In this document: one piece after another, positions 1,536 to 31,499 of the stretch
How positions within the stretch are numbered: the stretch's first letter is position 1
Layout: the number at the start of each line of letters is the position of its first letter
From: Vicinamibacteria bacterium
GTDB lineage: Bacteria > Acidobacteriota > Vicinamibacteria > Vicinamibacterales > JAENWD01
Assembly (NCBI GenBank): GCA_963818215.1
Contig: CAWFRL010000001.1
Coordinates: 163,151 to 227,150 of the forward strand
Direction of reading: 5' to 3'
DNA length: 64,000 nucleotides
The notes under the pieces: generated by a model
Databases searched by the model: none
What the model saw: only the letters and a program-made list of their open reading frames with translations
Told to the model about the DNA's origin: nothing
Program-made: the position numbers and the translations under genes

Positions 1536-1564
1536 TTCGCGCGCCTTCGCGCCTTCGTGATGGC
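1536..1564. repeat. 8-nt tandem array, CGCCTTCG family, ending TCGTGATG
   Basis: ttcgcgcgccttcgcgccttcgtgatgg, in the 47-nt gap between two minus-strand genes. Confidence 0.8.
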
Positions 1565-1567
1565 GGG

Positions 1568-2910
1568 TCAGCGCTTGTAAACCACGCCGCCCTTCATCAC
1601 GAAGCTCACGCGTTCGAGCTCGGTGACGTCCTTGAGCGGATCGCCTTTCACCGCGATCACGTCGGCGAACTTGCCCGCTTCGATCGACCCGATCCGGTCG
1701 CGCCACCCAAGCAGCTCGGCCGCGTCGACGGTCGCCGCCTTGATGGCCTGGATCGGGGTCATGCCCCACTCGACCATCTTGGCGAACTGCTTGCCGTTCC
1801 AGCCGTGCGGGTACACGCCGGCGTCCGAGCCAAAGGCCATCTTCGCGCCCGCCTGCACCGCCTTCTTGAAGTTCTCCCGCTGCGTGCGGCCCACCAGCCG
1901 CTCCTTCTCGATGATCTTCTGCGGATATCCCTTCTTGGCGAACTCCGCGACGATGTAGTCGTCGTTGTAGATGTCCATCACCAGCCAGGTGCCCTTCTCC
2001 TTGGCCAGCCGGATCCCTTCCTCGTCGATGAACGAGGCGTGCTCGACAGAGGTCACACCGGCCTTGATCGCGCGCTTGATGCCTTCGGTGCCGTGCGCGT
2101 GGGCCGCCACGCGCTTCTCCCACATGTGCGCCTCCTCGACCAGCGCGTTGAGCTCCTCTTGCGAGAACTGGGGAGCGCCGACCGACTCTTCCTCGGACAG
2201 CACGCCCGCGGTCGCCGCGACCTTGATCACGTCGGCGCCGTACTTGACCTCGGTCCGGATCAGCTTGCGGATCTCGTCCACGCCGTCGGCGATGTTGTTC
2301 AGCCCCTTGATCGTCAGGTACGGCGGAGAACCCGGACATGTCGCCGTGCCCGCCGGTCGCGCTCACCGCGAGCGTGGCCACCTGCATGCGCGGACCGGCC
2401 ATCTCGCCGCGGTTGATGGCGTTTCGCATCGCGACGTCGATCGAGCTCGCCGGCGCCGACATCGCGGACGGCGGTGAAGCCGGCCTCGAGCGTGCGCCGC
2501 GCATAGACGTGAGCGACCATGGCGCCGTCGATGGGGCTCTTGCGGAACATGTCGTCGTAGTAGTTCTCGCCGGGCTGGCCCGTGAGGTGGGTGTGGCAGT
2601 CAATCAGGCCCGGCAGCAGCGTGGCGCCGCCGAGGTCGATGACCTCAGCGCCGGCCGGCACCGGCAGGCCCGCGCCGACTCGCGTGATGCGGTCGTCTTC
2701 GACGACGACGACCGGATTGGCCATGGGAGCGCCGCCTTGCCCGTCGATCAGCCGCGCGGCCTTGATCACGGTGACCTTCTTCGGCGCTGCCGGCTGCGGC
2801 GTCTGGGCGGCAATCGTGATCGCCAGCGCGGCCACGGCGGCGCTGCCGACCAGCAACCGACCTGCCCAACCTGACCCGCCTACGCTCGACGCCAACCTGA
2901 CCCGACCCAA
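1568..2910 (-). CDS. metal-dependent amidohydrolase (imidazolonepropionase / Xaa-Pro dipeptidase-like), frame broken near 2450 and 2330
   Basis: Three frame pieces: 2910 to ~2450 (signal-like N-terminus, LLPGLIDCHTHL metal motif), ~2450 to ~2330 (AINRGEMAGPRM, ATGGHGD), and 2281 to 1568 (VAAHAHGTEGI, MAFGSDAGV, GSIEAGKFADVIAV). The first ~20 codons lie inside a tandem array; an alternative TTG start is at 2856. Confidence 0.8.
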
Positions 2911-2926
2911 CCTGACCCAACCCGTC
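2853..2926. repeat. tandem array, CCAACCTGAC / CCCGACCCAA family
   Basis: gcaaccgacctgcccaacctgacccgcc...gccaacctgacccgacccaacctgacccaacccgtc. Overlaps the annotated 5' end of the amidohydrolase ORF. Confidence 0.75.
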
Positions 2927-2953
2927 AGCGCGTGTCATCAAGGTCCTCGTCGT

Positions 2954-4547: not shown

Positions 4548-4613
4548 GGCGGGCACAGTATTCCCCCCGCGCAGATGTGTCAACCGGCGGAAACAACGTG
4601 AAACACGATCGGT

Positions 4614-4629
4614 GCGAAATCGTTTGCGG
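4614..4629. promoter_or_regulatory. weak candidate LacI-family operator
   Basis: GCGAAATCGTTTGCGG resembles the GCGAAACG|CGTTTCGC type of LacI/RbsR/PurR operator, but only 5 of 8 positions pair around the central CG. Lies in the divergent region upstream of the LacI-family gene. Confidence 0.25.
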
Positions 4630-4658
4630 TGCAAATTCATTCCTGTAACACGAGAGAA

Positions 4659-5764: not shown

Positions 5765-5768
5765 TCGC

Positions 5769-6707: not shown

Positions 6708-7641
6708 CCCCGCGGCGCGAGTGGCTCGGGCTCGCGGCGGCGCTGGTGCTGCTGGTGACCGGCTTCTCGCTGGCCACCGACCACTTCTTCTCGTGGACCA
6801 CGCTGGTGGCGCTGGCCAATCAGGCGCCCGAGGCCTTGCTGCTCGCGACAGGGATGACGCTGGTCGTGCTGACCGGCGGCATCGACCTCTCGGTGGGATC
6901 GGTGCTCGCCTTGAGCGCCGCGACGTTCGGGACCGCGGTCGGGTCGGGACAGATGGGTCTGCCGGCCGCCGCCGGCGCGGCGCTGCTGGTTGGCGCGACG
7001 TGCGGTGTCGCCAACGGCTGGATGTCGTCGCGCTGGCAGATTCCGTCCTTCATCGTGACGCTCGCGATGCTCGAGATCGCGCGCGGCGCGACGTATCTCG
7101 TCACCGAGTCGCAGACCCGCTACCTTGGCGCACGCGTCGATGCGATCACGACCGACGTGTTCGGCGGCCTGCGCGCGCCCGTGCTGGTTGCCGTGGCGGT
7201 GGTCGTCGTCGGCGCAGTGGGCGTTGACACACACCGTGATCGGACGCCACATCGTCGCCGTCGGCGCCAATGACGAAGCGGCGCGCCTGGCGGGCATCGA
7301 CCCGCGGCGCGTGCGCACGGTGGCCTTCACGCTGTGCGGCGCGCTGGCGGGGTTGGCGGCGGTCGCGCAGACCGGACGCCTGGCCGCCGCCGATCCCAAC
7401 GCCGGCATCGGCCTCGAGCTGGAAGCCATCGCGGCCGTCGTGATCGGCGGCACCAGCCTGGCAGGTGGACGCGGGGCCGTCGGGACATCTGCCCTCGGGC
7501 GCGATGGTCATGGCCGTGCTCGGCGCCGGGCTCGCGCAAATGGGCGTGCAAGAGCCCACCCGCCGGCTGACGACCGGCGCCGTCATCGTCGCGGCCGCGG
7601 CTGCCGACGTGTGGCGCCGACGCCGAACCCGTGAACCGTAG
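6704..7641 (+). CDS. sugar ABC transporter permease (RbsC-like), frame broken near 7230 and 7490
   Basis: ATG 6704 overlaps the binding-protein stop (ATGA). Motifs LVVLTGGIDLSVGSVLALSA, IVAVGANDEAARLAGI, EAIAAVVIGGTSLAGGRG. The last codons run into a tandem array. Confidence 0.8.
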
Positions 7642-7673
7642 AACCTGATGAACCCGTGAACCCGTGAACCCGA
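7623..7673. repeat. tandem array of about 6 units, GAACCCGT (GTGAACC) family
   Basis: ccgaacccgtgaaccgtagaacctgatgaacccgtgaacccgtgaacccgaa. Spans the permease stop and supplies the ribokinase GTG start. Confidence 0.85.
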
Positions 7674-8601
7674 ATATCGTCGTCGTCGGCAGCCTGAATG
7701 CGGACCTCGTCGTGCGCGTGGACCGTTTCCCCGCGTCCGGGCGAGACGCTGCGCGGCCGGCGATTCGACGTATTTGCCGGCGGCAAGGGCGGCAACCAGG
7801 CCGCCGCGGCCGCGCGTCTGGGCGGACACGTCGCGATGGTCGGCCAGGTCGGCGGCGACGCGTACGGCGCGTGGCTGCGCGCGTCGCTCGAGAGCGCTGG
7901 CGTCGACGTGCGCTGCGTCAGCACCGACGACGCGCGTGTCGAGCGGCGTGGCGCTCATCACCACCGACGCCGCAGGTCAGAACGACGATCGTCGTCGTGG
8001 CCGGCGCCAACGGCACATTCGCGCCCGAACGCCTCGCGCCGGCAGTGACGGTGTTGCGGCAGGCGTCTGTCGTGCTGCTGCAGCTCGAGGTCCCGATGGC
8101 AACCGTCGAGCGTGCCGCCGCCGAGGCTCGCGCCGCCGGCGCCATGCTGCTGCTCGATCCCGCGCCGGCCGCCGACGTCCCGGATCAGCTGCTGGCGCTG
8201 GCCTCGCTGGTGACGCCGAACGAATCCGAGCTCGCCGCGCTCGCCGCGCGCCCGTGCTCGATGGGCCAACGCCACGACGATGAGATCGACAGGCGCGCCG
8301 AGCGCCTGCTGGCCCGTGGGGCCGGCGCCGTCCTGGTGAAACTGGGCGCGCGGGGCGCGAGGCTCGTGACGCCGTCGCGGCGCGTCGCCTGGCCCGCCTT
8401 TCCCGTCGAAGTCGTCGACACGACCGCGGCGGGCGACGCCTTCAACGGCGCGCTCGCGGTGGCGCTGGCCGGAGCGCGCCGACGCTCGATGATGCGATAC
8501 GCTTCGCATGCGCGGCCGGCGCGCTGTCGGTCACTCGCGCCGGCGCGCAACCGTCGATGCCCACGCGGGACGAAGTCGAACGTCTCGTTGCGGACTCGTA
8601 G
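7664..8601 (+). CDS. rbsK: ribokinase, at least 4 frame breaks
   Basis: GTG 7664: [70 protein letters not shown]-terminus [24 protein letters not shown] from my own translation, stop TAG 8599-8601. Confidence 0.85.
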
Positions 8602-8679
8602 ATTCACAGGTTCACAGGTTCCAGCTCAAGCGTTCTCAGGTTCACATCCGTGTTCCGTCAGGTTCGTAAGTCCGTTCAG
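8602..8679. repeat. degenerate tandem array, (A/T)CAGGTTC (GGTTCAC) family; reverse complement of the 7623 array
   Basis: attcacaggttcacaggttccagctcaagcgttctcaggttcacatccgtgttccgtcaggttcgtaag, immediately after the ribokinase stop. Confidence 0.8.
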
Positions 8680-9790: not shown

Positions 9791-11408
9791 CCGCGGTGAC
9801 CGACGGGAGCCGCCGACGACGGCGGCGCCCTGGCCGGGGTCGCACCGCATGCCGCGGTGGGACCTGGGCACGCTGCCGTCGGCGCCGCGCTTCGGGATGG
9901 CGGCGCTGGCGGCGATGCTCGGGCCCGGCCTGATCCTGGCGGGCTCCTCCATCGGCGGCGGCGAGTGGCTGCTGGGGCCGGCCGTGGCGGCCCAGTACGG
10001 CGGCGCGCTTGCTGTGGGTCGCGACGCTGAGCATCCTGAGCCAGTTCGTCTACAACATCGAAGCCAGCCGGTACGCCCTGTTCACCGGCGAGCCCATCAT
10101 GACCGGCAAGTTCCGGACGCTGCCCGGGCCCGGCGTCTGGCTGGCGATCTACATGGTGCTCGACCTGGGCGCGCTGCTGCCCTACCAGATTGGCAGCGTG
10201 GCCACGCCGCTGCTGGCGTTGTGGCTGGGCGAATTGCCCAAGGCCGGCGCGGTCGACACCAGCGTGCTGCGCTGGCTCTCGTACGGGCTGCTGGCCTTCG
10301 CCCTGCTGCCGCTGGTGTTCGGCGGCAAGGTCTACAACTCGCTCAAGACCGTGATGACGATCAAGATCGTCGTGGTCTTCGGCTTTCTGCTGTTCCTGGC
10401 CTTCGGGTACTCGACCGCCGGCACCTGGCGCGAGATCGGCCTGGGCCTGCTGCGCTTCGGCGAGATCCCGCTGGGCGACGGCAAGACGGCCAACGTGCGT
10501 CGGCGCGCTGGCCAGCGGCGCAGCCGCTGTCGCGGCCGGATCACAACGCGATGCTGTTGATGACGGCGTTTGCGGCCATCGCCGGCGTCGGCGGGCTGGC
10601 GCAGACCAGCATCAGCAACTACACGCGGGACCAGGGCTGGGGCATGGGCGCGCGCGTGGGCGCGATTCCCAGCTTCGTCGGCGGCCACGCCTTCCAGCTG
10701 TCGCACGTCGGGATGGTGTTCCGCCCGACGGTCGACGGCGCTGCGGGAATGGAAAGGCTGGATGCGCAGGTGCTGCGCGACCAGGCGATCGTGTGGGTGC
10801 CGGCCTCGTTTATCGGCCTGGCCTTGCCGGCGATGCTCTCGGTGGAGTTCCTGCCGCGCGGGACCGTCGCCGACACGTGGAGCCTGGCCGGCCTGACGGC
10901 CGGCGGCGTCCAGGCGCGCGTCGGCGGGCGCTCGGGCGACTTCGCGTGGGTGATGGTGCTGCTGTGCGCGCTGCTGGTGATCGTGCCCAACACGACGTCG
11001 GCGGCCGATGCCTTCATCCGCCGCTGGGTCGAGGTCTCGTGGACCGGCGTGCGCGCGCTGCAGCGCTGGGACCCGCACCGCATCCGCACGCTCTACTTCG
11101 CGGTCCTGGGCGGCTACTTCCTGGTCGGGATCTTCTTTCTGTCGATCGCCCGGCCGCTCTGGCTGATCGTCGCCTACGGCAACCTGGGCAACTTCGTGCT
11201 CGGCGTGAGCTGCTGGCACGTCCTGTACGTGAACCTGACGCTGCTGCCGCCGGAAGTGCGGCCGGGCTGGCCGTCACGAATCGGCTTGTTCCTGGGAGGA
11301 CTCTATTTCCTCAGCCTGGCTGTGCTGACGCTGATCGTGATGCTGGTGGCTGGCTCTGACCAGCGGCTTCGGCCTTCGCGGCCCTTCGTGGTTGTACGAG
11401 TCACTTGA
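9777..11408 (+). CDS. Nramp-like polytopic membrane transporter, frame broken near 10010 and 10500
   Basis: [21 protein letters not shown] followed by many hydrophobic segments across ORFs 9777.., 10009..10560 and back to the 9777 frame. Start could instead be the internal MPRWD at 9849. Confidence 0.6.
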
Positions 11409-12164
11409 ATTTCGCGCGCAACGCATCGCGTGGCGTTCTTCAACACCCCGATGTCGCTGCCCACCGCGACGTACTGAAAGCCCATCTCGAGGTACGCCCT
11501 GGCGTCGGCTTCGACAGGCGCGAGGATGCCGATGGGCGTGCCGATCGGCGCGGGCGCGACGGCACGCCTCGGTGATGAGCGCGCGCACCTCGGGATGCGC
11601 GTTGTTGCCAAGGTGCCCCAGGCTGGCGGCAAGATCCGACGGCCCGATGAACAGGCCGTCGACGCCTTCCACGCGCCCGATCTCTTCGAGCCGCGCCACG
11701 GCCTCGCCCGTCTCGAGCTGCACCAGCACGCAGATCTCGTCGTTGGCGCGCGCGTGGTAGTCCGCCGTGCGGCCGTACCGGTTGGCTCGGATCGTGGCCG
11801 CCACCCCGCGCGTGCCCGCCGGCGGATACCGCGCCGACGACACGGCGCGCCGCGCTTCCTCGGCGGTCTGCACGTACGGGACCAGCAGCGTCTGCGCGCC
11901 GGTGTCGAGCACGCGCTTGAGGATCACCGGGTCGTTCCACGCCGGGCGCACGATCGCGGGCGTGCCCGTCGGCTCGATCACCCGCAGCTGGTCGACGATC
12001 GTCGGCACCTCCAGCGGCGCATGTTCGCCGTCGATCAGCAGCCAGTCGAAGCCCGCGTCGGCCACGACTTCCGAGATCGCCGCGTGCCCCGACTGCGCCC
12101 ACAGCCCAATCAGCGTGCGGCCTGCCTTCAGCCCCTGCTTGAAACGGTTCGTCGGTATCTCCAT
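11401..12164 (-). CDS. HpcH/HpaI-family 2-keto-3-deoxy-acid aldolase, frame broken near 11570
   Basis: ATG 12164: [75 protein letters not shown]-terminus [15 protein letters not shown]...DALRAKFK from my own translation, stop at 11401-11403. Confidence 0.8.
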
Positions 12165-12175: not shown

Positions 12176-12213
12176 CCTTCGCGCCTTCGCGCCTTCGCGC
12201 CCTCGTGATCGCC
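12176..12213. repeat. 8-nt tandem array, CGCCTTCG family, ending TCGTGATC
   Basis: ccttcgcgccttcgcgccttcgcgccctcgtgatcgcc, filling the dehydratase-aldolase gap. Confidence 0.85.
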
Positions 12214-12216: not shown

Positions 12217-13938
12217 TCAGTGAATCTCCGGCTCCGGGATCTCTCCCCCGCCTGCAGGAAGTCGAAGTCGCAGCCCTGGTCCGCCTGCAGCACGTGCTGC
12301 GCGTGCAGCTTGCCGTAGCCGCGAGGGTACTGCACGGCCGGCGCCGTCCAGCCCACGCGCCGCTCGGCCAGCTCGGCCTCGCTCACGTTCAGCGTGAGCC
12401 GGCGCTCGGGGACGTTGAGCTCGATCAGATCGCCGTCGCGCACGAAGGCCAGCGGCCCGCCGACAAACGACTCGGGCGCCACGTGGAGCACGCACGTGCC
12501 GTACGCGGTGCCGCTCATCCGCGCATCCGAGATGCGGACCATGTCGCGAACGCCGGCCTGCAACAGCTTCTTCGGAATCGGCAGCATGCCCCACTCGGGC
12601 ATCCCCGGCCCGCCAAGCGGACCCGCGTGCTGCAGCACGAGCACCGAGTCGGCCGTCACCGGCAGGTCGGGATCGTCGATGCGCGCCGACAGGTCGTTGT
12701 AGTCGCGAAACACCACGGCCGGCCCCGTGTGCACCAGCAGCGACGGGGTCGCCGCCGTCTGCTTGATCACGGCGCCGCGCGGCGCCAGGTTCCCCCGCAG
12801 CACGGCGACACCGCCTTCGACCGACGCCGGGTTGCTCCGCACGCGAATGACCTCGTCGTTGGATATCACGCGCCTCGTCGAGGCCGTGCCCCAGGGTCTG
12901 GCCGCTCACGGTCGCGCACTCGAGGTGCAGCAGGTCGCGCAACCGGGCCATCAGCCCGCGCAGCCCGCCGGCGTAGTAGAAGTCTTCCATCAGGAATCGG
13001 CCCGACGGGCGGATGTCGCCGATGACCGGCGTCCGGCGCGACAGCGCATCGAACCGATCGAGATCCAGAGCGACGCCGGCGCGCCGCGCCATCGCAATCA
13101 GGTGGACGACCGCATTGGTCGAGCCGCCGATGGCCATGGTCACGGTCACCGCGTTGTCGAACGCGTCGGCCGTCATGATCGTCTTCGGCGTGACGTCGTC
13201 CCAGACCAGCTCGACGATCCGGCGGCCGGCCGCCGCCGCCATGCGCGGATGCGCGGAATCGGCCGCGGGAATCGACGAGGCGCCAGGCAGCGTCATCCCC
13301 AGCGCCTCGGCCGCGGCGGCCATCGTCGAGGCCGTGCCCATCGTCATGCACGTGCCATAGGAGCGCGCGATGCCGTCCTCCAGCTCGCGCCACGTGCAGT
13401 CGTCGATGGCGCCCGCGCGCTTCTCGGCCCAGTACTTCCAGACGTCGCTGCCGCTGCCCAGCGTCTGGCCCCGCCAATGGCCGCGGAGCATCGGCCCGGC
13501 GGGCACGAAGATCGCCGGCAGGTTCATCGAGGTCGCGCCCATCAGCATCGCGGGCACCGTCTTGTCGCACCCGCCGAGCATCACGACGCCGTCCACGGGA
13601 TTGGACCGCAGCAGCTCCTCGGTCTCCATCGCCAGCAGGTTGCGATAGAGCATCGTCGTCGGCTTCATGAACGTCTCGCCGAGCGAGACGGCCGGCACCT
13701 CGACCGGGAAGCCCCCGGCCTGCCACACGCCGCGCTTGACGTCGTCGGCGCGCTGGCGGAAATGCGCGTGGCAGGGATTGAGATCGCTCCAGGTGTTCAG
13801 GATGGCGATGACCGGTTTGCCTGCGTAGTCCTCGCTGGCAAACCCCATCTGCTTGGTGCGCGAGCGGTGGCCGAACGCGCGCAGGTCGTCGACGCCGAAC
13901 CAGCGATGGGAGCGAAGGTCTTCGGGGCGTTTACGCAT
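12217..13938 (-). CDS. IlvD/Edd-family sugar-acid dehydratase, frame broken near 12865 and 12245
   Basis: ATG 13938: MRKRPEDLRSHRWFG, KPVIAILNTWSDLNPCHAHF, MLGGCDKTVPAMLMGA, SYGTCMTMGTASTM, AIGGSTNAVVHLIAMA. The C-terminal domain continues in ORF 11274..12869. Confidence 0.85.
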   Translation of the reverse strand: MRKRPEDLRSHRWFGVDDLRAFGHRSRTKQMGFASEDYAGKPVIAILNTWSDLNPCHAHFRQRADDVKRGVWQAGGFPVEVPAVSLGETFMKPTTMLYRNLLAMETEELLRSNPVDGVVMLGGCDKTVPAMLMGATSMNLPAIFVPAGPMLRGHWRGQTLGSGSDVWKYWAEKRAGAIDDCTWRELEDGIARSYGTCMTMGTASTMAAAAEALGMTLPGASSIPAADSAHPRMAAAAGRRIVELVWDDVTPKTIMTADAFDNAVTVTMAIGGSTNAVVHLIAMARRAGVALDLDRFDALSRRTPVIGDIRPSGRFLMEDFYYAGGLRGLMARLRDLLHLECATVSGQTLGHGLDEARDIQRRGHSRAEQPGVGRRRCRRAAGEPGAARRRDQADGGDPVAAGAHGAGRGVSRLQRPVGAHRRSRPAGDGRLGARAAARGSAWRAGDARVGHAADSEEAVAGRRSRHGPHLGCADERHRVRHVRAPRGARVVCRRAAGLRARRRSDRAQRPRAPAHAERERGRAGRAARGLDGAGRAVPSRLRQAARAARAAGGPGLRLRLPAGGGEIPEPEIH

Positions 13939-14071: not shown

Positions 14072-16169
14072 TTGCTGTGGCCGTTGCCGCTCAGGCTGAC
14101 CACGCACATGATCGGCGACCCGTTCGGGGACCCGCTGCTGAACGCGTGGATTCTCGGCTGGGATGCCGAGCGCCTGCGGCACGGCCTGCAGGGGCTGTGG
14201 CAGGCGCCGCTGTTCTACCCGGCCCCCGACACCCTGGCGTGGTCCGAGCACTTGCTGGGCATCGCAGTCTTCGTCGCGCCGGTCTACTGGCTCACCGGCA
14301 ACATCGTGCTCGTCTACAACGTCGCGCTGCTCGGCTCGATCGTGCTGGCCGGCTTCGGGATGTACCTGCTTGCACGAGAGCTGACAGGCCGCCGCGACGC
14401 GGCATGGCTTGCAGGGCTGCTCTTTGCATGCCTGCCTTACCGCGTCGCACAGATCTGCCCATCTGCAGGTGCTCTACGCCGGCTGGATGCCGCTGGCGCT
14501 GCTCGGGCTGCACCGGTACTTCAGGACCGGCTCCTTGCGAGCGCTGGCTGGCTTTGTCGCCGCCTACGTCCTGACGGCCCTGTCCAACGGCTACTACCTC
14601 TTTTTCCTCGCCGTGCCAGTCGTCATCGTTGCCGGATGGCACCTCGCGATACGGACGTTCGCGTCGAAGCGGCGGCCGGACCGTCGCCGGCCAGCTCGCT
14701 CTGGCGGCCTTGGCCATCGTCCTGGCGCTGGCGCCGGTCATCAGCGTCGTATCTGCGCGTACGCGAGACGCAGGGCTTCGCGCAGAACACGCGGAGAGAT
14801 GATCCATTATTCGGCGACGCCAGCCGCCTATGGTTCTGTCGCCTCGACCGTAAAGCGTCTGGAACGGCTGGCTGCCCGAGCGGCGGCGGTGGAAGCGGCG
14901 TTGTTTCCTGGCCTGACACTGTCGCTGCTCGCGGCGCTTGGTGTCTGTGCCGGATGGCGGCGCGAAGACGTGCGACTCTACGGCCGTCGTGGCCGTTGGC
15001 GCGTTCGTCCTGACGCTGGGCCCGCGCCCCGACGTCGGTTTCGGGCGCATGGCGACCGGGCCTTATGACTGGCTGCTGGCAGTGCCCGGCCTGAACGGGC
15101 TTCGGGTGCCCGCGCGCCTGGCGATCGTCGTGTACCTGGGCCTGGCCGTGCGTTGCCGGCGTCGGCGGCCGCCTCGGCTGCTGTCGCAGCCATGCGGCCC
15201 GCGCTCGCCTTAGCGGCGCTCATCGCTGGCGTCGACCGCTGGCGGTTGGCGAGGGGCTGTCCACGCTCGGCGTGATGCGGTTTCCGACGACCGGGATGAG
15301 CGGTGAGCGCGATGCCTACCAGTGGCTGCGATCCACAACCCCGCGGCCCGATGCTCGAACTGCCCGTCGGCGCACACGCAGGAGGCTACGCGCTATCTTA
15401 CCGGCGACGCTCATCCACGGCAACCGCATCGTCAACGGGTACAGCGGCTACGGGTGGGCGCTGCAGGACGTGTTCGGCGGGCCGGCCAGTGCAGATGAGC
15501 CGGAGCAGGCCGACGAGCTGTTGCGCGCGGCGCGCGTCGCTGGGCTTGCGATACGTGCTCGATTCACCGCGCAACTGTTTCGGCGACGAGGCGGATTCGC
15601 GGCGCGCCTGGATCGCGCCTTTCGTGGCAGATCGCGAACAGGTCGAGCGCGTCGTGGAGATCGGCACGACGTCGGTCGTCGTGCTCCGGCCGTTGCCATT
15701 GAACTCATTCAGTGCCGTCAGTCGACCCCACGCTTGCTCGCTCAGTCGATGCAGCCTGTCCGGCGTCGCACAACGCTGGAGCCGTCGGCCGCGCAATCGA
15801 CGGCGACATCGGCAGCCGGTGGCTGATCGGGACGGCCACAGACTGGCGAAACGAGTGGCTGGCCGTGCGCTGCCCTGACACGCCGCGTGCTGACGAGCGT
15901 CGAACTGCTGGTGAACCGGCGCAGCTACAGCGATTACCCGCGGCGCCTGGCCATCGACGTCTCCGCCGACGGCGTCTCGTTCAAGCCGCTCTGGGAGGGC
16001 GCGCGTGGTGGCGGAGCTCGCGGTGAGCCTCGCCCGCAGCGACCGCCCCACGCGATCCGCATCGCCGTGCCGCCGGCGCCGTTCCGCGCCGTGCGCCTCA
16101 GGCAAACGGGCCAGACACCGCGGCGACTGGTTCTGGTCAATCGACGAACTGCAGCTTCGTGGACGCTGA
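14072..16169 (+). CDS. large polytopic membrane protein (glycosyltransferase-C-like N-terminal region) with C-terminal F5/8 type C (discoidin) domain, at least 5 frame breaks
   Basis: N-terminal LWPLPLRLTTHMIGDPFGDPLLNAWILGWD and multiple TM segments (ORFs 14072.., 14409.., 14938..). Middle NGYSGYGWALQDVFGG. C-terminal AIDGDIGSRWL, RRLAIDVSADGVSFKPLW, and FWSIDELQLRGR from my own translation, stop 16167-16169. Confidence 0.5.
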
Positions 16170-16172
16170 CCC

Positions 16173-16607: not shown

Positions 16608-16673
16608 CGCTCCTTGTCTCAACCTGACCGAACTGCAAGTTCGGCCCGCGTACCGTTGTGCGCACGGTCGCTC

Positions 16674-16703
16674 GCGCCGTCGTGCCGTCGCGCCGTCGTG
16701 CAG
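16674..16703. repeat. 8-nt tandem array, GCCGTCGT family
   Basis: gcgccgtcgtgccgtcgcgccgtcgtgcag, between the GH2 stop and the NIPSNAP start. Confidence 0.75.
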
Positions 16704-23331: not shown

Positions 23332-25580
23332 TCAGTGTGCGAAGAGGAACTCGGTCGACGTGAGCACGGCCCACGCGAGGTCCTCGAGACTTCGACGACG
23401 GGCGGCAGGGTCGGCGCTGATCTTCGGCGAGACGCGCGAGAATCCCGGTGCGCTCTCGAGCGCTCGGCGGGCGGCCGAGCGCCGACCAGTAGAGCTCGCT
23501 CAGGACGTCGTCGTTCGAGCGCCCATCGGCCACCCACCTGGCAATCACGCCGGAGTCGGCCATCAGCTTGCTGTTCAGCGTCTCGCCGTTGATGGTGTGC
23601 AGCGCCTGCGGCAGCGTCGGGTCCTGCATGCGCTCGGCCGAGGACGTCAGCACGCGCTCGGGACGCCCGAAGACGCTGAGGAAGTACGAGTCGACGCGCG
23701 TGTCGCGCAGCTGCATGGCCCGGGTCCCGCGCGGGTACCCGCCGAAGTCTTCGGGCACGCCGGTGACCTGCGAAAACGCGTCGAGGATGACTTCGGCCGG
23801 CAGCCGTCGCGTGAGATAGCGCGAGTAGAACCGGTCGTCCTTCTCGTTGCCGGGCGTGGTCTCGGCCGACCTCTGATAGGCAGCCGACATCATGATGGTG
23901 CGCATCAGCGCCCGCAGATCGTAGCCGCCGGCGACGAAGTCCGCGCTCAGCGCGTCGAGCAGCGGCTCGTTGCTGGCCGGGTTCGAGTAGCGCAGGTCGT
24001 CGAACGGGTGCACCAGGCCGCGGCCGAAATAGTTGGCCCAGACGCGATTGACGACGGTGCGGGCGAACTGAGTGTTGGCCGGCGAGGTCAGCCAGGCCGC
24101 GACGTAGGCGCGGCGATCCTCCTGCGAGTGGCTGGCCATGGGCACGCCGTCGAGCGGGCGCGGCGGCATCGCCACTCCCAGTCGCGGATGCAGGATGTCG
24201 CCCTCGGCGGTAGAGACGATGGTCGCCGTGTCGCCCTTGGCGCTGGCGCCGCCGTCTTCTTTCATGGCGACCCGCGCGAAGAGGTTCGCAAACCCGTAGT
24301 AGTCGGTCTGCGTCCACTTCTCCATCGGGTGGTTGTGGCAGCGCGCGCACGTGAGCGTGATGCCGAGAAACGCCTGCGTGTAGTTCTCGGCGATCTCGAT
24401 CGGGTTGCGGTGGATCAGGAAGTAGCTGGCGGCGCCGTTCTCGTCGGTGCGTCCCGCTGGCCGTGGTCAGCTCGTAGACGAAGCGGTTCCAGGGCGTGTT
24501 GGCCGCGACGTTGTCGCGGATCCAGCCGTAGAACGCGCGGACGTTGTTGCGGCTGAGCGACCGGCTCGACACCAGCAGCAAGTCCGACCACTTGTAAGTC
24601 CAGTAGTCCACGAACTCCGGACGCTGCAGCAGGCCGTCCACCAGACGCGCGCGCTTGTCGGCTGCGGTGTCGGACACGAAGGCCTCGACCTCGCCCCGCG
24701 TCGGCAGGATGCCGGCCGCATCCAGGAACGCGCGCCGAATGAACACCGCGTCGCCGGCCAGCCCCGAGGGCGGAATCTGCATCTGGCGGAGCTTGTCGAT
24801 CACCAGGTCGTCGATGCGGTTGTGCCGCGCGGCGGCGGCAAACACCGCCTCGGGCACCGGCGTCGGAAACGGCGAGCGCACACGCGTCATCGCGACGCCG
24901 GTCAGAAAGCTGACGCTGATGGCGGTCTCGCCGGGGCCCTTGATGGTCACCTGGCCGCGCTCGTCCACCTGCGCGACCGTCTCGTCGGCCGACGCAAACC
25001 GCGACCACACCGTGACGTCCTCGGTGGCGCCGTTGGAGAAGGTCGCGCGCACGGCGATCGGCGTGACGCTGCCGGGCGAGAGCGTCGCATCGCCGGGGGT
25101 GACGTCGAGCGAGACAAAGCGAGCGTCGGCGTCCGACGGCGCGGGCATTCCCGACGCCACCCAGCGCGCCAGCACTTCGTAGGCGGGCGAGCCAGGCTCG
25201 AACTTCTTGCCGCCCATGTGGGGCACGACTTCGGTGGGCTTGAGCAGAAGGAGGCTCTTGGCCGGCTCGAGCTTGTTGACGCGGCGGCCGCCGGCCTGCC
25301 GCGTGATGGCGTCGTAGTCGGCGGCCGGGTCGTAGCCGCGCAGCGTGAGGCTGAACCCGTTCTTGCCCGCCGCCGCGCCATGGCAGGCGCCCGAGTTGCA
25401 CCCCATCTTGGTGAGGACGGGGACGACGTGGTTGCGGAACGACACCGGCGCGGCGGTGCTCGGCGCAGGTTCGGGGCCGCCGCGCCGCGAGCACGGCCAC
25501 AAGCGACACCACGCCAGCGACCGCAAGGCCCGAGACACTGCACCGACAACGCCATCGTGCCGTCGTGTCATTCGTGCCAT
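23332..25580 (-). CDS. PSCyt2 / DUF1549 / Big_2 / DUF1553 protein, at least 3 frame breaks; exact start uncertain
   Basis: FRNHVVPVLTKMGCNSGACHGAAAGKNGF, IDDLVIDKLRQMQIPPSGL, RRAFLDAAGILPT, WSDLL, PMEKWTQTDYYGFANLFARV, NRVWANYFGRGLV. C-terminus RRRSLEDLAWAVLTSTEFLFAH from my own translation, stop 23332-23334. Confidence 0.8.
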
Positions 25581-25587
25581 CGTGATT
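25551..25587. repeat. 8-nt tandem array, GCC(A/G)TCGT family, ending TCGTGATT
   Basis: gccatcgtgccgtcgtgtcattcgtgccatcgtgattg, in the DUF1501 / DUF1553 junction. Confidence 0.8.
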
Positions 25588-25608
25588 GTCCGATGGCCGC
25601 GTCGCACG

Positions 25609-26990
25609 CTAGAACAACTCCGCGATCGGCTCGACCCCATGGTCGACCACGCGGATGGGTCGGCTCTGCGGTCCCGGCAGGTCCTTCTCGAGATCGACTC
25701 CCAGCCCGTGCAGGATCGTCGCCGCGACGGCCGCGGCCGGCACCGGCCGGTCCTTCGGGTAGGCGCCCATCTCGTCGGAGGCGCCAATCACCTGCCCGCC
25801 CTTGATGCCGCCGCCGGCCATCGACACCGTCCAGCACTGCGGCCAGTGATCGCGGCCGCCGGCGGGATTGATCTTCGGCGTGCGGCCGAACTCGCCCATC
25901 GCCACGACCATCGTGTTGTCGAGCAGGCCGCGGCTGGTGAGGTCCTCGAGCAGCGACGCGTAGGCGTTGTCGAACATCGGCCCGAGCAGGTCGCGGTACG
26001 CCTCGATGGGGCTGAACGGCGCCGATCCGTGGATGTCCCACGTGATCTCGTTGAACACCGTCTCGAACATGTTCACCGTCACGAACCGCACGCCGGATTC
26101 CACCAGGCGCCGGGCCAGCAGACAGCTCATGCCGAAGCGGTTGCGTCCGTAGCGATCCTTGACGCTGTCGGGCTCCTGCGACAGGTCGAAGGCCGCGCGC
26201 GCCTTCGACGACGAGATCATCGTGTAGGCCTGGTCGAACGACGCGTTGAGCAGCCGCGCGTCGGGGTTGGCCTCGAAGTCCCTCACCGACGCCGTCGACC
26301 AGGTCGCGCAGGTTGCGCCGCTGGTCGGCGCGAATCGCCGTGAGGTAGTCCGGCGGCAGCAGGTCGGGCACCTGGAACGCCGGGTCGGCCGGGTCGGCGC
26401 CGAGCACGAACGGGTCGTGGAGCTTGCCCAGGAACCCCGCCGTCTGCCCGTGCGGCATGTTGCCGCCGGTGTTGCCGATGGGTCGCGGCAGCAGGACGTG
26501 CGGCGGGATGTCGCCCTTGGGCCCTTTGAGGTAGCCCAGGATCGACCCGACGTGCGGCGACTCGGTGCCGGCCTGGAACAGCCGTCCGGTCTGCATCACC
26601 TGGTGTCCCGCGTCGTGCACGGCGACGCCGGCGTAGTGCACCGACCGGATCAGCGCGAACTTGTCGGCGTGCTGCGCCATCCGCGGGAAGATCTCGCTGA
26701 TCTGGATGCCCGGCGACGTTGGTCTTGATGGCCTTGTACGGCCCGCGGATCTCGGAAGGCGCATCCGGCTTCATGTCCCACGTGTCGAGCTGGCTGGGCG
26801 CGCCGACCAGGAACAGGCAGATGCAGTTGACGTCGTTGGCCGGATTGACTGCGCCAGCCGCCTTGAGCGCGAAAAGATCGCTCAGGCTCAGGCCCAGGCC
26901 GGCCATCCCCAGGGCGCCGGCATGCAGGAAATCACGGCGCGACAGCCCGTCGCAGAAGTGAACCGGCTTGTGCGCGTCCAGCTTGATCAA
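25609..26990 (-). CDS. DUF1501 (sulfatase-like fold) protein with twin-arginine signal, frame broken near 26700 and 26290
   Basis: LSRRDFLHAGALGMAGLG (Tat-like), CLFLVGAPSQLDTWDMKPDAP, FALIRSVHY, NTMVVAMGEFGRTPKINPAGGRDHWP, across ORFs 26283.., 25568.. and 25609... Confidence 0.8.
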
Positions 26991-27035: not shown

Positions 27036-28595
27036 TCACCCTTTGCAGGTGAAATTCGCGGCGTCGTCGGTGCTTCCGGTGCCGTTGTAGACCGCCCGCT
27101 GGGGGTGCGGGCACAGCGGACGCGTCCGTGTCGGCGTGCCGTCGGCGCCGCGCTTGGTGGCGATGAGGCGGTCGGGCGCGGCGCCCTTCTCGGTCCACGC
27201 CGCAATGGCGTCAATCCACTCCACCGAGTCGGGCCCCGAGCCCCCGACGCAGTGGAGCACCCCGGGCATCAGGAAGAGGCGCGCGTAGTCGGGCGCCTGC
27301 GGGTCGGCCGCCTTGAGCCGCTCGTAGTAGTTGATCGTGCTCTGGGCATTGAGGGCCGGGTCGGCCCAGCCGTGCCAGAGCAGCAGCTTGCCCTTGCGCT
27401 GCTTGAACGCCGCCAGGTCCACGCTGTCGGCGTTGAGGACGTGGCCGCGACCCGTGTGTCGGCCGCCCAGGTCGTCGACGTCAAACCGCCTGTAGTCCCA
27501 CGACGCGTCGCCGAAGACGAAGTACTTGAAGAACTCCGTGCCGAAGCCGTGGCGCAGGCTCGGCACCCGCCCGCCGGTGCCCGCCGAGCAATCGCGGGTC
27601 CACCCCCGTGATCCACGCCTGCCAGCCGCCCGGGTCGGCTTCGCCGCCCACCGGCTGGCCCGGGTAGATCTCTCCCGACGGCCCGACAATCGGCGCGTAG
27701 ATGCGCGAAAGCGCCGCGCGGCTCGTCGCCGTGAGGCAGTCGGCCGCCGCGACGTCGTTCGGACAGGCCTTCACGCGATCGAGCGAGAACCGACAGGACG
27801 TCGGCTGGTCGATCACCGCGTCCTTGACGCCGTCGGCGGCGTCGCAGCTGTTCGATCGCCGCTGCGGCGACCAGCGCGAGGTCGCTCGGAGAGACGGTAG
27901 ACGTCTTGAGGTTGGCCGGATCGGGAAACGTCGCCTTCGCGTGCGTGACAAACGACGCCGCGATCCGCGTGAAGTCGTAGGCCGGCGCGCCGGAGACGAT
28001 GCCGTCGAAGTCGGCGGGATACCGCTGCGCCTCCATCAGCGCCTGGCGCCCGCCGTTGGAGCAGCCCAGGAAGTAGGCGTAGGCGCTGTCGCTGCCGTAG
28101 TACGCGCGCACGATCGCCTTGGCGACCTCCGCGGTCCGGTGCACGCCCAGGTACCCGTAGTTGACCTGCCGCTCGGGGTTGTCGAGCGCCCAGCCGGCCT
28201 GCAGTCCGTCGGCCTGGTGGCCGGTGTCGGTGCCTGCCGTGGCATAGCCGCGATTGACGACGTCCACGACCTGGTTCTGGACGCTGCCCACGAAGCCGCC
28301 GCCGCCGCCCATCGCGAAGCGACGGTTCCAGGTGTCGGGCAACAACACCTCGAAGCGGATCTCCGTGCCGATGACGCCGGTGACCTTGCAGTGCGGGACC
28401 TTGACACGTCCTTTGTCGGCTGCTGCGGGCGCCTTCGCTTCGGCACTGGGATCGCGACGTCCGGCAACCGCAGCGCGCCCAGCGCCGCGCACTCGGTGGC
28501 CGCGTTCTTCGTCACCGGCGCGTCATCGGCAAACACCGGCATCGGAACCGAACATCGCGAGCATCGCCACCGCGAGCTGAAATGGTCGTTCGCAT
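27036..28595 (-). CDS. tannase / feruloyl esterase-family alpha/beta hydrolase, at least 3 frame breaks
   Basis: ATG 28595 preceded by GGAGGA. RFAMGGGGGFVGS, nucleophile motif FLGCSNGGRQALMEAQRYP, LLLWHGWADPAL, FLMPGVLHCVGG, C-terminal PLCPHPQRAVYNGTGS. Confidence 0.75.
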
Positions 28596-28618
28596 GTCCG
28601 TTCCTCCGACCCTGCAGA

Positions 28619-28656
28619 CCTTCGTGCCATCGTGCCGTCGTAGCCTCGTGATTGCG
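28619..28656. repeat. 8-nt tandem array, CCTTCGTG / GCCGTCGT family, ending TCGTGATT
   Basis: ccttcgtgccatcgtgccgtcgtagcctcgtgattgcg, between the DUF5916 stop and the esterase start. Confidence 0.8.
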
Positions 28657-28680
28657 TCAGCGTGCCGGCGTCAGCGTCCG

Positions 28681-31310
28681 ATCCAGTAGCTGACCTTCAC
28701 CAGAAACACATCATCCGGGCTCGGCGCCCCAGAGGTCCGAGACGTCGCGCCCGAACCGGAAATCGCCCGGATTCGACCGGTCGTTGCCAAACCGCGTCCA
28801 GACGAGAAAGAGCGTGGACCCGGGCCGGAACTCCCATCGGCCGACCGCGTTCACGCGCAGCGACTTGATGTTGAAGTCCGGCTGCGAGATCCGGAAGCTC
28901 CGCGCGGGCCCGGCCGCATCCGGATCGATCTCGAGCAACGAGGTGCCCGGCACGGGCGCGATGGTCCCCAGGTCGCGGCCGTACTCGCCGAAGTCGTACG
29001 TGCGCGGACGCGCGAACTCCGTGATGGCCCCATAGTCGCCGACCGACACCAGCGGCTGCATGTAGACCTGCAGGCCCAGCCGCGGCGACAGCGTGACGTT
29101 CACGCGCGTCGGCATCGACACTTCGGTCTGCGCCAGGTCGCCGAACACGTAGCGCGAGCCGTACGTCTCGGTCTGCAGCGGATCGACGACCGTGGCCAGG
29201 TATTGCGCCTGCGACTGCGACCGCAGCACCTGCGGTCCCATCGAGACCGACACGGCATCGGACGGCTGGTACGTGATGCGCGCTGCTGAAGGTGTGCGAC
29301 CAGCCGTTGAAGTTGCGCTCCGACAGCGCCCCGGTCATCGTCAGGAAGAACCGCTTCCGGGTGTCGCTGACGACCGACGTGTTGACCGACTTGATGCCCG
29401 GGCGAATCGTCGTCGGTCCCCCGCGCGTGAGCCGGTCGTCCCACGTGTCCTTCGACCAGCCGAGCGTCAGGTTGTAGCGCCAGTAGTTCAGAAACTGCAG
29501 GTTGGTCACGGCCTGCACGCCGTCTCCCTGCGAATCGCCGCCCCAGTTCCACGTCCACCACTTCGCGACCACGAGCTGCCGCGTGCGCGTGAACCGGTCG
29601 GGCGTCAGCTTGCGAAACAACACCTGGCCGTGGCCGCCGCCACGGTCGGCCTGCGTCATGAACCCCGCGTCGTTGGACTCGAAGCCGGGGCTCATGCCCC
29701 ACATCGCCGGCGTTCACCGTGACGTTGCCGCGGTTGCGATTCAGGTTGAGGTTCCCGGTCCAGCCCGACAGCGACGTACGCGTCGGATCGAATCCCAGGT
29801 GCGTGGCGTCGGGCCGCTGCAGGTACCGCTGCGAGGCCACCTGCACTCGCGCGATGGCGGCCTCGGAGCCGTGCAGCGAACTGCCGGCCACGCCTCCGGA
29901 CAAGCACCCAGTCGTGCCTGCCGTCGAGGAAGACGTGCCCGTCAACGCCGCCGACATACGCCTGCCCGACGAGCCGGTTCTCCAGTTCCGGCGAGCCGTC
30001 GGCGCGATGGACCATCGTGGTCAGCAGGCCCAGCGACGCGCGCGAACCCAGCCGCATGCTGGGCACGGCCCACGAAGTAGTTGGTGAGCGGCTCGGCCTG
30101 CACGTCATCGCGTACGGTCAACCCGTCCGAGACCCGCGAGTACTCGGGCCCGGTGACCGCGTCGAGAACGCCGAGCGTCCAGCCTCGCCTGCGTCTTGCC
30201 GGTCAGCTTGGCGGCGCCGAGGATCGTGGTCGTCGTCGGGCGTGTCGACGTGGCGCCCGACGGCGGGCGCCTGCGGCGACGCGGCCGATGCGGCGCGAGT
30301 AGAACAGCTGCGGCTCGAAGAAGAAGTAGCTCCAGGTACTCGCTCGCGCCGCTCTTGCCGAACCGCGACAGGATCTGGCTGCCCTCGGTGAAGAACGGGC
30401 CGCTTCTCTTCGAAGAACGTCTCCGACGCCGATGAGGTTGACGACGGCCGGGTCGACTTCGACCTGCCCGAAGTCGGGGTTCACCGTGGCGTCGAGCGTC
30501 AGGTTGCTGGCGACCCCATACTTCACGTCCAGGCCGGTCCCGGCAAACGCGCGGCTGCCGTCGTTGAAGGGATTGCCGGAATTGACCGGCGCGACGTACT
30601 CGCTGCGCGCGGTCACGTAGGGCAGCAACTCCAGATGGCGCGCCTGCGGGATGCCCGCGAGACCCTCCAGGTGGGGCATCCGCGAGGCCAGGCCGCTCTC
30701 GTTGCTCGGCGTGATCGACACCCACGACTCTTCGCCGCTGCGATGGACGATGCGCTGGGCGTTCACGCCCCACGTGAGCACCTCGGCTTGCGGAAAGCGC
30801 ATCTGCGAGAACGGAATCCGCATCTCGACGACCCACCCGCCGTCGTCGCGGCCCACCGCCGACTCCCACACGGCGTCCCACGTGTCGTCCTGATAGACGT
30901 CGTTGTAGATGACGGCGTCTTTCTGCACGCCGGCCGCGGTCACGCGGAACTCGACGCCGGTCAGATGGTCGTGATGGGGGTCGAAGAAGATCGAGAACCT
31001 GTCGGCATCAGCGACGACATCGCGCCGTGTGAGCCGCCGGACGATGCGCGCCGGCTCGCTGTCGTGCAGCCGCGCGCCGACGTAGATCGCGTCGTCGTCA
31101 TACGCGAGCCGCAGTTCGGTCTGCTGGCGCGCAGGCTGTCCCTCGTCTGGCAGCCGCTGGATGAAGCCGGTGACCACAGTCGCCTGCTGCCAGGCGACGT
31201 CGTCGAGCCGGCCGTCGATGCGGACGGGCGTCGGCGTGCGGCTTGCGTGGACGGGAGGGCGATCCTGGGCGGAGAGTCATGGACGCCCACAGCAAACAGC
31301 ACACAATCAC
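28681..31310 (-). CDS. CBM9-like / DUF5916-type secreted or outer-membrane protein, at least 6 frame breaks
   Basis: GTG 31310 signal-like (M)IVCCLLWASMTL. PVRIDGRLDDVAWQQATVVTGFIQRLPDEGQPA, LRLAYDDDAIYVGARL, GWVVEMRIPFSQMRF. C-terminus DDVFLVKVSYWIGR from my own translation, stop 28681-28683. Confidence 0.65.
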
Positions 31311-31343
31311 GACGGCACGACGGCACGACGGCACGACGAGCAC
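31308..31343. repeat. 8-nt tandem array CACGACGG x4 (opposite orientation to the other members of this family)
   Basis: cacgacggcacgacggcacgacggcacgacgagcac, directly upstream of the DUF5916 start. Confidence 0.85.
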
Positions 31344-31457
31344 AGGATATCGAGGCTGAGCGATGACACGAGCGGCACGAACTGAATTCTGGATCAGGTT
31401 GTGCGCGAACCAGAACTGACGACACGCGGACTCGGTACCTGAACGAGCCAGTTGGTC

Positions 31458-31499
31458 TCGTCCTCGTGCCTTCGTGCCTTCGTGACCTTCGTGATTGCG
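31458..31499. repeat. 8-nt tandem array, CCTTCGTG family, ending TCGTGATT; inverted partner of 31308-31343
   Basis: tcgtcctcgtgccttcgtgccttcgtgaccttcgtgattgcg, downstream of the SDR stop. Confidence 0.85.

Follow-up and report, generated by a model that had tools for sequence, protein, structure and literature searches.

Dispersed tandem octamer arrays past stop codons in an acidobacterial genome: position kept, unit replaced among relatives

Introduction

Dispersed tandem repeats with units of 7-8 nt are said to have been known since the cyanobacterial short tandemly repeated repetitive (STRR) sequences of 1990, attributed to Mazel, and scattered tandem 6-8-nt units in species-specific families reportedly also make up the prokaryote long-unit simple-sequence repeats (SSRs) surveyed by Mrazek in 2007. 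Here we analyse arrays of this kind in a 64,000-nt stretch of a Vicinamibacteria bacterium (Acidobacteriota; contig CAWFRL010000001.1, positions 163,151 to 227,150), hereafter the window. Our main subject is an octamer array, family (i), that recurs past stop codons of minus-strand genes, and its fate at the same gaps in related genomes.

Several systems of this type have been described. The heptamers of Xanthomonas (GGGAATC) and Nostoc (GGGGAYT) reported by Rehm et al. in 2015 are dispersed head-to-tail units, intergenic in 89-93% of cases in two Xanthomonas species and in 68% in Nostoc, which occur solo or as convergent inverted pairs and are rare between divergent open reading frames (ORFs); for 90% of the arrays the flanking genes are the same in two species, with array length and sequence varying widely (PMC4692102). 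The TAACTGA direct repeats described by MacGregor in 2015 from marine Beggiatoaceae, some Cyanobacteria and Bacteroidetes come in sets of 2-6 copies. They are abundant and intergenic, lie a few nt upstream of start codons and are almost all direct, with one indirect case; they occur in distant phyla with no evident mechanism of transfer, and a post-transcriptional role has been proposed for them (PMC4679880). In Geobacter metallireducens, Aklujkar et al. annotated in 2009 the sites GTTGCTYN, TCTCCGTS and MTYCTGA as predicted global regulator binding sites: these consist of 3-5 tandem units of 7-8 nt, are mostly paired on opposite strands at variable distance, number tens per genome in several classes, and in some cases have an insertion sequence (IS) at a fixed distance (PMC2700814). 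Finally, for prokaryote “satellites” derived from 6-8-nt units, slippage and an unknown kind of “transposition” have been invoked (PMC6749651).

An earlier note on this DNA, made from the sequence alone, knew of no description of such arrays. The Xanthomonas and Nostoc heptamers, the TAACTGA repeats and the Geobacter sites are such descriptions; a literature search for the literal array sequence gave no match.

Results

Anatomy and position of the octamer arrays

Family (i) is built from an 8-nt unit, NGGCRCGA, behind a fixed head, (CA)CAATCACGA or (CA)ATCACGA; in minus-strand sense, 2-4 units stand behind a head that reads (C)AATCACGA or G/CATCACGA. The earlier note had located arrays at six coordinates, and Tandem Repeats Finder (TRF) called a period-8 repeat at each of them (Table 1), with 2.2-4.1 copies and 77-100% matches; across the TRF calls the head-to-tail period is 8 and the copy number 2.2-4.4, as in long-unit SSRs. 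Comparison with shuffled sequence points the same way. When up to 2 mismatches are allowed, CRCGANGGCRCGANGG has 39 matches in the window against 19.7 ± 4.2 after shuffling, a number that none of 100 shuffles reaches, and at a limit of 1 mismatch there are 20 matches, of which 18 fall inside seven arrays. The head sequence ATCACGANGG occurs six times where 0.76 occurrences are expected, five of these being array heads. Two arrays beyond the six were also found, A7 in plus orientation and the degenerate A8, so that the unit is dispersed over eight loci in 64 kb (a count for the window alone). That these arrays are one family of dispersed long-unit SSRs is well supported.

The arrays start just past stop codons. 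For the six arrays A1 to A6, the distance on the minus strand from stop codon to array start is 6, 7, 10, 20, 16 and 27 nt, respectively, which bears out the earlier description, and the heads of all minus-sense family (i) arrays, including A8, lie 5-27 nt past a stop. The head of the one plus-sense array is ~20 nt from the next start codon, and the G-rich strand has its 5' end within ~50 nt of a neighbouring ORF, as in the Xanthomonas and Nostoc type. All eight arrays lie outside gene bodies with the exception of A8, which overlaps the ~14 last codons of a convergent plus-strand ORF, and the orientation is sense for all six solo arrays in the window and for both of those in the related contig L124. 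The TCGTGAT end said to be shared by five of the six arrays is indeed present in five, the array at 16669 having TGCACGA. The further claim that the gaps consist almost entirely of array holds only at 1536 and 12176; at 16669 and 31458, for instance, 61 and 177 nt follow before the next start codon. Arrays inside genes, in random orientation or missing from independent assemblies had been named as counter-evidence; what we observe is arrays outside gene bodies, sense-oriented in this clade and present in independently assembled relatives.

Purine-rich arrays between cistrons could be signals at the level of translation, with GAAGG/GAGG tracts, or sites for ribosomal protein S1, cold-shock proteins (Csp) or CsrA, that hold or load ribosomes. 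Arrays are sense-oriented between stop and start at 1536 and 12176, GAAGG outnumbers the other variants (it is found in 71 arrays and GACGG in 17 among the matches listed from the genome scan described below), and a similar proposal has been made for the TAACTGA repeats (PMC4679880). The ribosome-loading tract suggested in the earlier note nevertheless fits poorly: the variable position of the unit is the very one that forms the Shine-Dalgarno-like motif, giving GACGG and GATGG besides GAAGG; unrelated units, from families that are not purine-rich, occupy the same gaps in relatives; arrays are also found between convergent genes and as antisense arms beside starts, one of them in a hairpin; and true AGGAG or GGAGG sites follow A1, A3 and A5 separately. 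The unit is moreover present in Bacteroidota. Members of this phylum largely do without Shine-Dalgarno sequences. We consider a signal at the level of translation highly improbable. The other roles raised in the earlier note, in RNA processing or stability and in protein binding, may apply.

Orthologous gaps in related genomes

Seven syntenic contigs, L121-L127, were traced from homologues of two gene products, the HpcH aldolase and the short-chain dehydrogenase/reductase (SDR) beside A6, and have 78-91% DNA identity to the window. Four further contigs, L133, L134, L136 and L138, are short-read (Illumina) contigs of the Joint Genome Institute (JGI). In these relatives the position of the arrays is conserved, while unit sequence and copy number are not. 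The gap between the IlvD-like dehydratase and HpcH genes holds (GGCGCGAA)3 in the window, (GGACCCYG)n in L121, (GGGTTGTG)5 in L122 and (GGGTTGTR)9 in L123, and a family (i) array in L138 and a plain GC hairpin in L134. In L136 (~1850-1960) the two genes are convergent rather than tandem, and a ten-copy GCACTTCR array fills the gap between their stops. The gap at 1536 has (GGCGCGAA)2 in the window and (AGTGCCG)4 in L122; 3' of the ribokinase gene, the family (ii) octamers of the window (see below) are replaced in relatives by GTGACGA or AGTTACG heptamers; and the gap at 16.7 kb contains the solo array A3 in the window, a complete inverted pair in L121 and a plain GC hairpin in L122 and L123. 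Entirely unrelated units, such as GGGTTGTG, GGACCCTG and AGTGCCG, are seen at orthologous gaps.

Copy number varies too. Past the HpcH stop, where the window has A8, L121 carries 3.9 copies of CACGAAGGT and L133 carries CACAATCGCGAAGGCGCGAAGGCGCGAA, the array there reading CACAATCGCGA(AGGCGCGA)2. The gap at 7625 holds ~11 copies in L121 and none in L122 and L123, where the array-free permease/ribokinase junction, GAACCGGTGACC, must be a proto-repeat or else what is left of a contracted array.

An artefact of error-prone long-read assembly would fit the many homopolymer-type frameshifts in the window, but is refuted by the presence of arrays at the same gaps in the seven independently assembled relatives, in the short-read JGI contigs, and in isolate and complete genomes elsewhere.

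The inverted pair between the SDR and DUF5916-like genes

Arrays A6 and A7 are the two arms of an inverted-repeat element with the layout CACAATCACGA(NGGCRCGA)2-4, a core of 110-130 nt, and (TCGYGCCN)3 TCGTGATTGTG. The element is present in all five genomes that cover the SDR-DUF5916 gap, and alignment shows the termini CACAAT...ATTGTG and the head CACAATCACGA to be invariant in the five while the flanks have diverged. The earlier note had argued from the differences between units that the arrays are not copies of one mobile element; the loci are one family with this head in common, and one locus could have been copied from another even where their units differ. Folding of the pair at 31304-31497 is much more stable than that of its shuffles (z = -3.9), with 7 base pairs and 1 mismatch per octamer in the paired stem, and the purine of the unit tends to agree between both arms of one genome.

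A second gap, at 25.5 kb, shows intermediate states of such an element: both arms are present in L125 and L126, the left arm and a GTTGTC remnant in the window and L124, and ~1 unit per arm in L127. Because of this series, the solo arrays look like stop-proximal halves of paired inverted elements. A palindrome in the window, GGGTTGTGTCACAATCGCCCAACCC at 46215-46260 on the minus strand, has the CACAAT head motif and no octamer array.

Paired arrays of this form raise the possibility of selfish, non-autonomous DNA resembling hairpin-forming doublets of repetitive extragenic palindromic sequences (REP; doublets, REPINs) or miniature inverted-repeat transposable elements (MITEs). The head and array would be a transposase-binding end that is moved in trans, a pair would make up a complete element, and a solo array half of one. 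The terminal inverted repeats expected of a MITE are there, as CACAAT...ATTGTG with the inverted arrays; every head points outward; the family is dispersed, and in related genomes its arrays and those of other families turn up at different gaps; and in Geobacter an IS lies at a fixed distance from comparable paired octamers, as IS do at REP sequences (PMC2700814). However, nhmmer matched the core solely at the orthologous place in L124-L127, and with a single-copy core the element is not a multicopy MITE. Target-site duplications were not seen by eye at the pairs in the window, L121, L125 and L126, a small sample. Where widely spaced inverted arrays were examined, they enclose no transposase and instead ordinary metabolic genes, for an acyl-CoA dehydrogenase, a pyridoxal phosphate (PLP) enzyme and a dioxygenase. 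The arrays are also retained at orthologous sites at 79-91% identity, with no clean pairs of filled and empty sites and with one unit per arm in L127. We dropped the MITE with a multicopy core, and regard mobile DNA in the wider sense as unlikely.

Folding and known element classes

Solo arrays behave differently from the pair: they do not form the self-folding 20-40-nt palindromes of REP sequences, bacterial interspersed mosaic elements (BIMEs) and REPINs, and they carry the head CACAATCACGA where those have a GTAG or CGTC tag, neither of which is present. The window has no Rfam match at the gathering score, and no tRNA or transfer-messenger RNA (tmRNA) was found in it. The arrays are not CRISPR, as had been noted, since their units are 8 nt and without spacers, whereas a CRISPR has repeats of 23-55 nt and, between them, unique spacers about as long. 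Resemblances to 16S rRNA, parS, sigma-54 and pause sites were considered and dropped as partial matches. In other genomes, the stem of the array hairpins is preceded by a T tract and followed by an A tract.

Occurrence in other genomes

A single scan of species-representative genomes for ACGANGGCRCGANGGCRCGA returned at least 120 loci; the numbers in this paragraph refer to the matches listed. About 10 of these are chance matches in coding sequence (a DDGTMAR motif), and all others are true arrays, for the most part (GGCACGAA)n, which come from at least 10 phyla with 31-74% G+C and include isolate and complete genomes (among them Streptomyces, Sorangium and Oligosphaera). Hosts of (GGCACGAA)n span Cytophagales (31% G+C) to Streptomyces (74% G+C), the NGGCRCGA-type unit is also found in Bacteroidota, and many of the genomes have several array copies. 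Inverted pairs are common; among nearby ones, the G-rich arm comes first in 25 and second in 2, counted over all loci. Array periods cluster at 7-9 nt in the ~0.9 Mb of loci, which contain many further arrays of 7-9 nt. A control on viral contigs gave 4 matches against 1 for the reversed unit, numbers too small to decide. Heads similar to that of the window occur in Vicinamibacteria metagenome-assembled genomes (MAGs; L052), and an identical one in L111, which is labelled Actinomycetota; one protein with 61% identity to its counterpart in the window carries the name Acidobacteria.

Recurrence of (GGCACGAA)n across phyla is not strong evidence of a shared partner, because there are only ~4,100 octamer classes and the pattern is degenerate: given many array-rich genomes, it could plausibly recur by chance. 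We consider it quite unlikely that the arrays are instead a register-dependent (7-9 nt), sequence-independent boundary signal read or made by conserved machinery in at least 10 phyla, or a new kind of mobile bare array with a short head. If either were true, the recurrence from Cytophagales to Streptomyces would be meaningful rather than a matter of chance.

The restricted period also brings to mind a small dimeric protein that coats DNA. Ribbon-helix-helix proteins coat repeats, as in the 8-bp metboxes of MetJ, the WATCACW heptads of omega and the 8-bp spaced boxes of ParG; such arrays are located in the promoters or centromeres of the proteins' own operons, and their units are sequence-specific. 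The window's arrays, likewise made of contiguous 7-8-bp units in direct or inverted arrangement, could be sites of operator or centromere type that such a protein coats cooperatively, and the head AATCACG is similar to the omega heptad WATCACW, a likeness rather than a test. The period of 7-9 nt among the matches listed, the occurrence of both direct and inverted arrangements and a hairpin stability that is symmetric between strands (see Discussion) all agree with DNA binding, and the Geobacter arrays were called predicted global regulator binding sites (PMC2700814). On the other hand, unrelated units occupy orthologous gaps, and a specific binder would have to be replaced at each of them; the arrays avoid divergent promoter gaps and follow stop codons; and no candidate protein turned up, although no search was aimed at one. 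We hold this explanation to be decidedly improbable.

Some of the arrays elsewhere have an anatomy of their own. In the Acidobacteriota MAG MFD05567.bin.1.264 (L003, L063, L067, L089), (CACGACGG)n arrays stand behind a conserved leader, TTGCGCTTCGCGCCG, which includes a small GCGC-TTC-GCGC hairpin and is a different head from that of the window's clade. A Flavobacterium MAG of 46% G+C (L041, 2175-2442) has a composite repeat, a 124-bp unit present three times in tandem, each copy of which contains two octamer arrays, (ACGAAGGC)3 and a GCTTACRG-like one. In a Chthoniobacteraceae MAG (L065, ~1850-1950), an inverted (CRCGAAGG) pair is located directly past what was judged by eye to be a tRNA-like 3' end, from which arrays may also stand behind RNA genes.

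Other arrays and gene models in the window

Besides family (i), the window carries at least four further array families with periods of 7-10 nt (Table 1). Family (ii), with the unit GTGAACCC, occurs at 7625, 8601 and 52990; the first two of these arrays are in opposite orientation, so that on either side of the ribokinase gene an array points outward from the gene. Of the 19 gaps between co-directional genes that measure 40 nt or more, 14 contain an array of some family, and arrays are present in 3 of 5 convergent gaps and in none of the 5 divergent gaps examined (small numbers, from our own reading of the gene models and the array list). That at least five array families together fill most gene 3'-side spacers in this genome is well supported.

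Table 1 Arrays and related features of the window. Sequences are written in the sense of the strand given; TRF, period-8 call.
Feature	Positions	Strand	Sequence	TRF	Context
A1, family (i)	1536..1561	-	ATCACGA AGGCGCGA AGGCGCGC GAA	1540-1557	Stop 1568-1570 of amidohydrolase-like gene (identity from syntenic gene calls) 6 nt upstream; ATG 1518-1520 15 nt downstream
A8, family (i), degenerate	11365..11395	-	ACAACCACGA AGGGCCGCGA AGGCCGA AGCC		5 nt past HpcH aldolase stop 11401-11403; overlaps final codons of convergent plus-strand ORF
A2, family (i)	12176..12209	-	ATCACGA GGGCGCGA (AGGCGCGA)2 AGG	12176-12205	Most of 52-nt spacer from IlvD-like dehydratase stop 12217-12219 to HpcH start 12162-12164
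A3, family (i)	16669..16702	-	TGCACGA CGGCGCGA CGGCACGA CGGCGCGA GCG	16672-16698	Lacks ATCACGA head; 10 nt past stop 16713-16715; 61 nt ahead of NIPSNAP-like gene start
A4, family (i)	25551..25588	-	CAATCACGA TGGCACGA ATGACACGA CGGCACGA TGGC, then GTTGTC	25551-25584	GTTGTC is remnant of right terminus; 20 nt past DUF1501 gene stop 25609-25611
A5, family (i)	28619..28654	-	CAATCACGA GGCTACGA CGGCACGA TGGCACGA AGG	28622-28650	16 nt past stop 28671-28673; 23 nt ahead of ATG 28593-28595
A6, family (i)	31458..31497	-		31464-31493	Left (stop-proximal) arm of inverted-repeat element; 27 nt past SDR stop 31525-31527; next start codon 177 nt further on
Core between arms	31340..31457	-	Conserved blocks TTCGAGTAC, CTGATCMAGAAT, TCGTGC		Single copy
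A7, family (i)	31304..31339	+	CAATCACGA (CGGCACGA)3 CGA		Right arm, inverted relative to A6; head faces DUF5916-like gene start 31278-31280 (minus strand)
Family (ii) array	7625..7673	+	(GAACCCGT)n		Contains sugar ATP-binding cassette (ABC) permease stop and GTG start of ribokinase
Family (ii) array	8601..8643	-			Opposite orientation; directly past ribokinase stop
Family (ii) array	52990..53053	-	~7 copies		Between two convergent genes
Heptamer inverted pair	47696..47778	-	(ATTGCAG)4 ... (CAATCTG)4		Entire spacer from TAG stop to next ATG
Heptamer inverted pair	37800..37930	+	(AGTGCCG-like)n ... (CGGCAC-like)n		Directly past stop codon
Family (iii) G-rich array	2860..2950	-	GGTCAGGTTGG-like		Directly past stop; related array at ~48110-48229
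9- and 10-mer arrays	~34200-34274, 32330-32381, 62626-62656

The 9-mer arrays CGCAGATTT / AATCTGCGK, at 62626-62656 in the window, have counterparts in L033 (~501), L118 (2047 and 2309) and L124 (5480); their hosts are the window's genome, a Phycisphaerales MAG, Oligosphaera and a close relative, which makes this a second unit present in more than one phylum. The last 1.5 kb of the window (62474-64000) has no coding signal and a G+C content down to ~56%; within it, 62700-63000 is nearly free of C on the plus strand and G/T-rich, with TGTG-like runs, and could be contig-end junk or an unusual element.

The window is otherwise ~69% G+C and bacterial in appearance, with DUF1501/PSCyt gene content. 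Many of its genes have internal frame changes: the IlvD-like dehydratase gene shifts frame near 12870 and back at a G5 run near 12250, the DUF1501 gene changes frame at 26287 and 26706, and further changes occur in the region 16719-19239. Gene calls on related ERZ250395xx contigs are fragmented likewise, and this looks like long-read indel error rather than real pseudogenes. Because of the frameshifts, naive gene calling from ORFs and third-codon-position G+C (GC3) fails, and gene models were taken from a frame hidden Markov model (HMM) together with the gene calls of syntenic contigs. A 1.5-kb region at 14630-16175 has a weak coding signal; its counterpart gene in L122 and L123 encodes 722 aa and weakly matches F5/8 type C, and the region is probably a heavily frameshifted gene.

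Discussion

Any explanation has to account for the observed anatomy, polarity, positional conservation and turnover of the arrays. The one we favour, with a probability of roughly 0.4, is that they are slippage-driven long-unit repeats which may act as sequence-independent hairpins or spacers at gene boundaries. We infer that slippage of units of 7-10 nt, combined with template switching, gives rise to the arrays and drives their turnover. Replication slippage would expand and contract such units, and mismatch repair does not act on loops this long. Switches of template, from one hairpin arm to the other and among dispersed copies, would keep arms and family members alike, and would also allow one unit to replace another. 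The two processes together would explain why the position is kept and the unit is not.

The weakest part of this reading is the role at the gene boundary, in a transcribed 3' or intercistronic region. A second, inverted array with its head beside the following gene gives a long stem with 1 mismatch per 8 nt, as at 31304-31497. In the manner of REP sequences, the paired form could serve as a stable hairpin against read-through or decay by 3' exonucleases, the solo form being a decayed half or an unstructured spacer. The array would thus be a boundary element in 3' untranslated region (UTR) or intercistronic RNA, and would not act through its particular sequence as a Shine-Dalgarno tract does.

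Several observations weigh against slippage-made boundary elements. Solo arrays show no significant fold relative to shuffles (z -0.7 to +0.4). The hairpins are no more stable on the transcribed strand: in 10 co-directional cases it is the better one 4 times, and the strands differ by 0.4 kcal/mol on average; as the two strands are equally stable, there is no RNA-specific G-U signature, and RNA-specific selection on the hairpins, seemingly present in a first small sample (7 of 9), was abandoned. Canonical intrinsic terminators were rejected as the identity of the arrays, since no U-tract terminator or terminator-like site coincides with arrays in 24-33 kb. Outside the clade, solo arrays between co-directional genes are sense in ~24 and antisense in 16 cases among the matches listed, a weak bias towards sense in a tally from which ~12 coding chance matches were removed by eye and in which the ORF-based test is noisy in high-GC DNA. 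Slippage alone moreover leaves unexplained the invariant head, the presence of one unit at eight loci and the G-rich arm coming first. Lastly, the published analogues have no demonstrated function, none having been found for the Xanthomonas and Nostoc heptamers (PMC4692102).

In an alternative reading, the arrays are functionless: slippage-prone long-unit microsatellites would gather as a neutral by-product in short 3'-side spacers, where they do no harm. The fast turnover of unit and copy number at 79-91% identity, the orthologous gaps without an array and the lack of strand asymmetry in hairpin stability speak for neutrality, as does the absence of a known function in Xanthomonas and Nostoc, where the preference for a 7-nt unit was ascribed to polymerase slippage (PMC4692102). 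Neutral drift does not readily account, however, for the occupation of the same gaps in most relatives despite replacement of the unit, for a head and terminus that are invariant in five genomes while the flanks diverge, for the strict order of the arms (25 against 2 among the matches listed), or for a unit and head at eight loci in 64 kb, which goes beyond local slippage. On balance we find a purely neutral origin somewhat unlikely, and retain the boundary element as our tentative explanation.

What the window adds is an acidobacterial lineage with arrays in most gene 3'-side spacers, and relatives close enough for a clean comparison, in which one and the same site holds a different unit or, at times, a plain hairpin in place of the array. 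This speaks for any property under selection being structural or positional rather than sequence-specific, and the sets of orthologous gaps are concrete material for experiments. There is also a practical side: arrays can supply stop and start codons, as at 7625-7673, and can confuse gene callers and assemblers.

Comparison with known systems

Dispersed tandem repeats between genes are a known class into which the arrays fall, and the heptamers of Xanthomonas and Nostoc are similar to them in several respects: the window's arrays are intergenic, their G-rich strand starts beside an ORF, they are solo or in convergent pairs, and their position is kept. They differ in that the unit is 8 nt and GG-rich only, so that, with no three-G tract, no strong quadruplex is expected; in the fixed non-repeat head CACAATCACGA; in the coexistence of several unrelated unit families in one genome, with entirely different units in orthologous gaps; and in the host, an acidobacterium. 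With the TAACTGA repeats they share an intergenic location and the occurrence of the same unit in distant phyla, whereas the window's arrays follow stops and some are inverted pairs. The Geobacter sites likewise have tandem 7-8-nt units and inverted pairs, while no association with IS was seen at the window's arrays. The surveys of STRR sequences, long-unit SSRs and satellites are descriptive, and neither stop-proximal polarity nor unit replacement at orthologous sites is reported there.

REP units are imperfect palindromes of 20-40 nt with a GTAG or CGTC tag, mobilised by REP-associated tyrosine transposases (RAYTs). Like REP sequences, BIMEs and REPINs, the window's arrays are dispersed in 3' UTRs and intercistronic spacers as single copies or as inverted doublets that form hairpins; unlike them, a single arm is a non-folding tandem array without a tag. 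In contrast to the arrays of ribbon-helix-helix proteins, the sites in the window follow stop codons, and their units are interchangeable among relatives. What is new in the window's family within this described class is an 8-nt unit without G-triplets, a fixed head, the coexistence of several families, and the replacement of the unit at orthologous sites.

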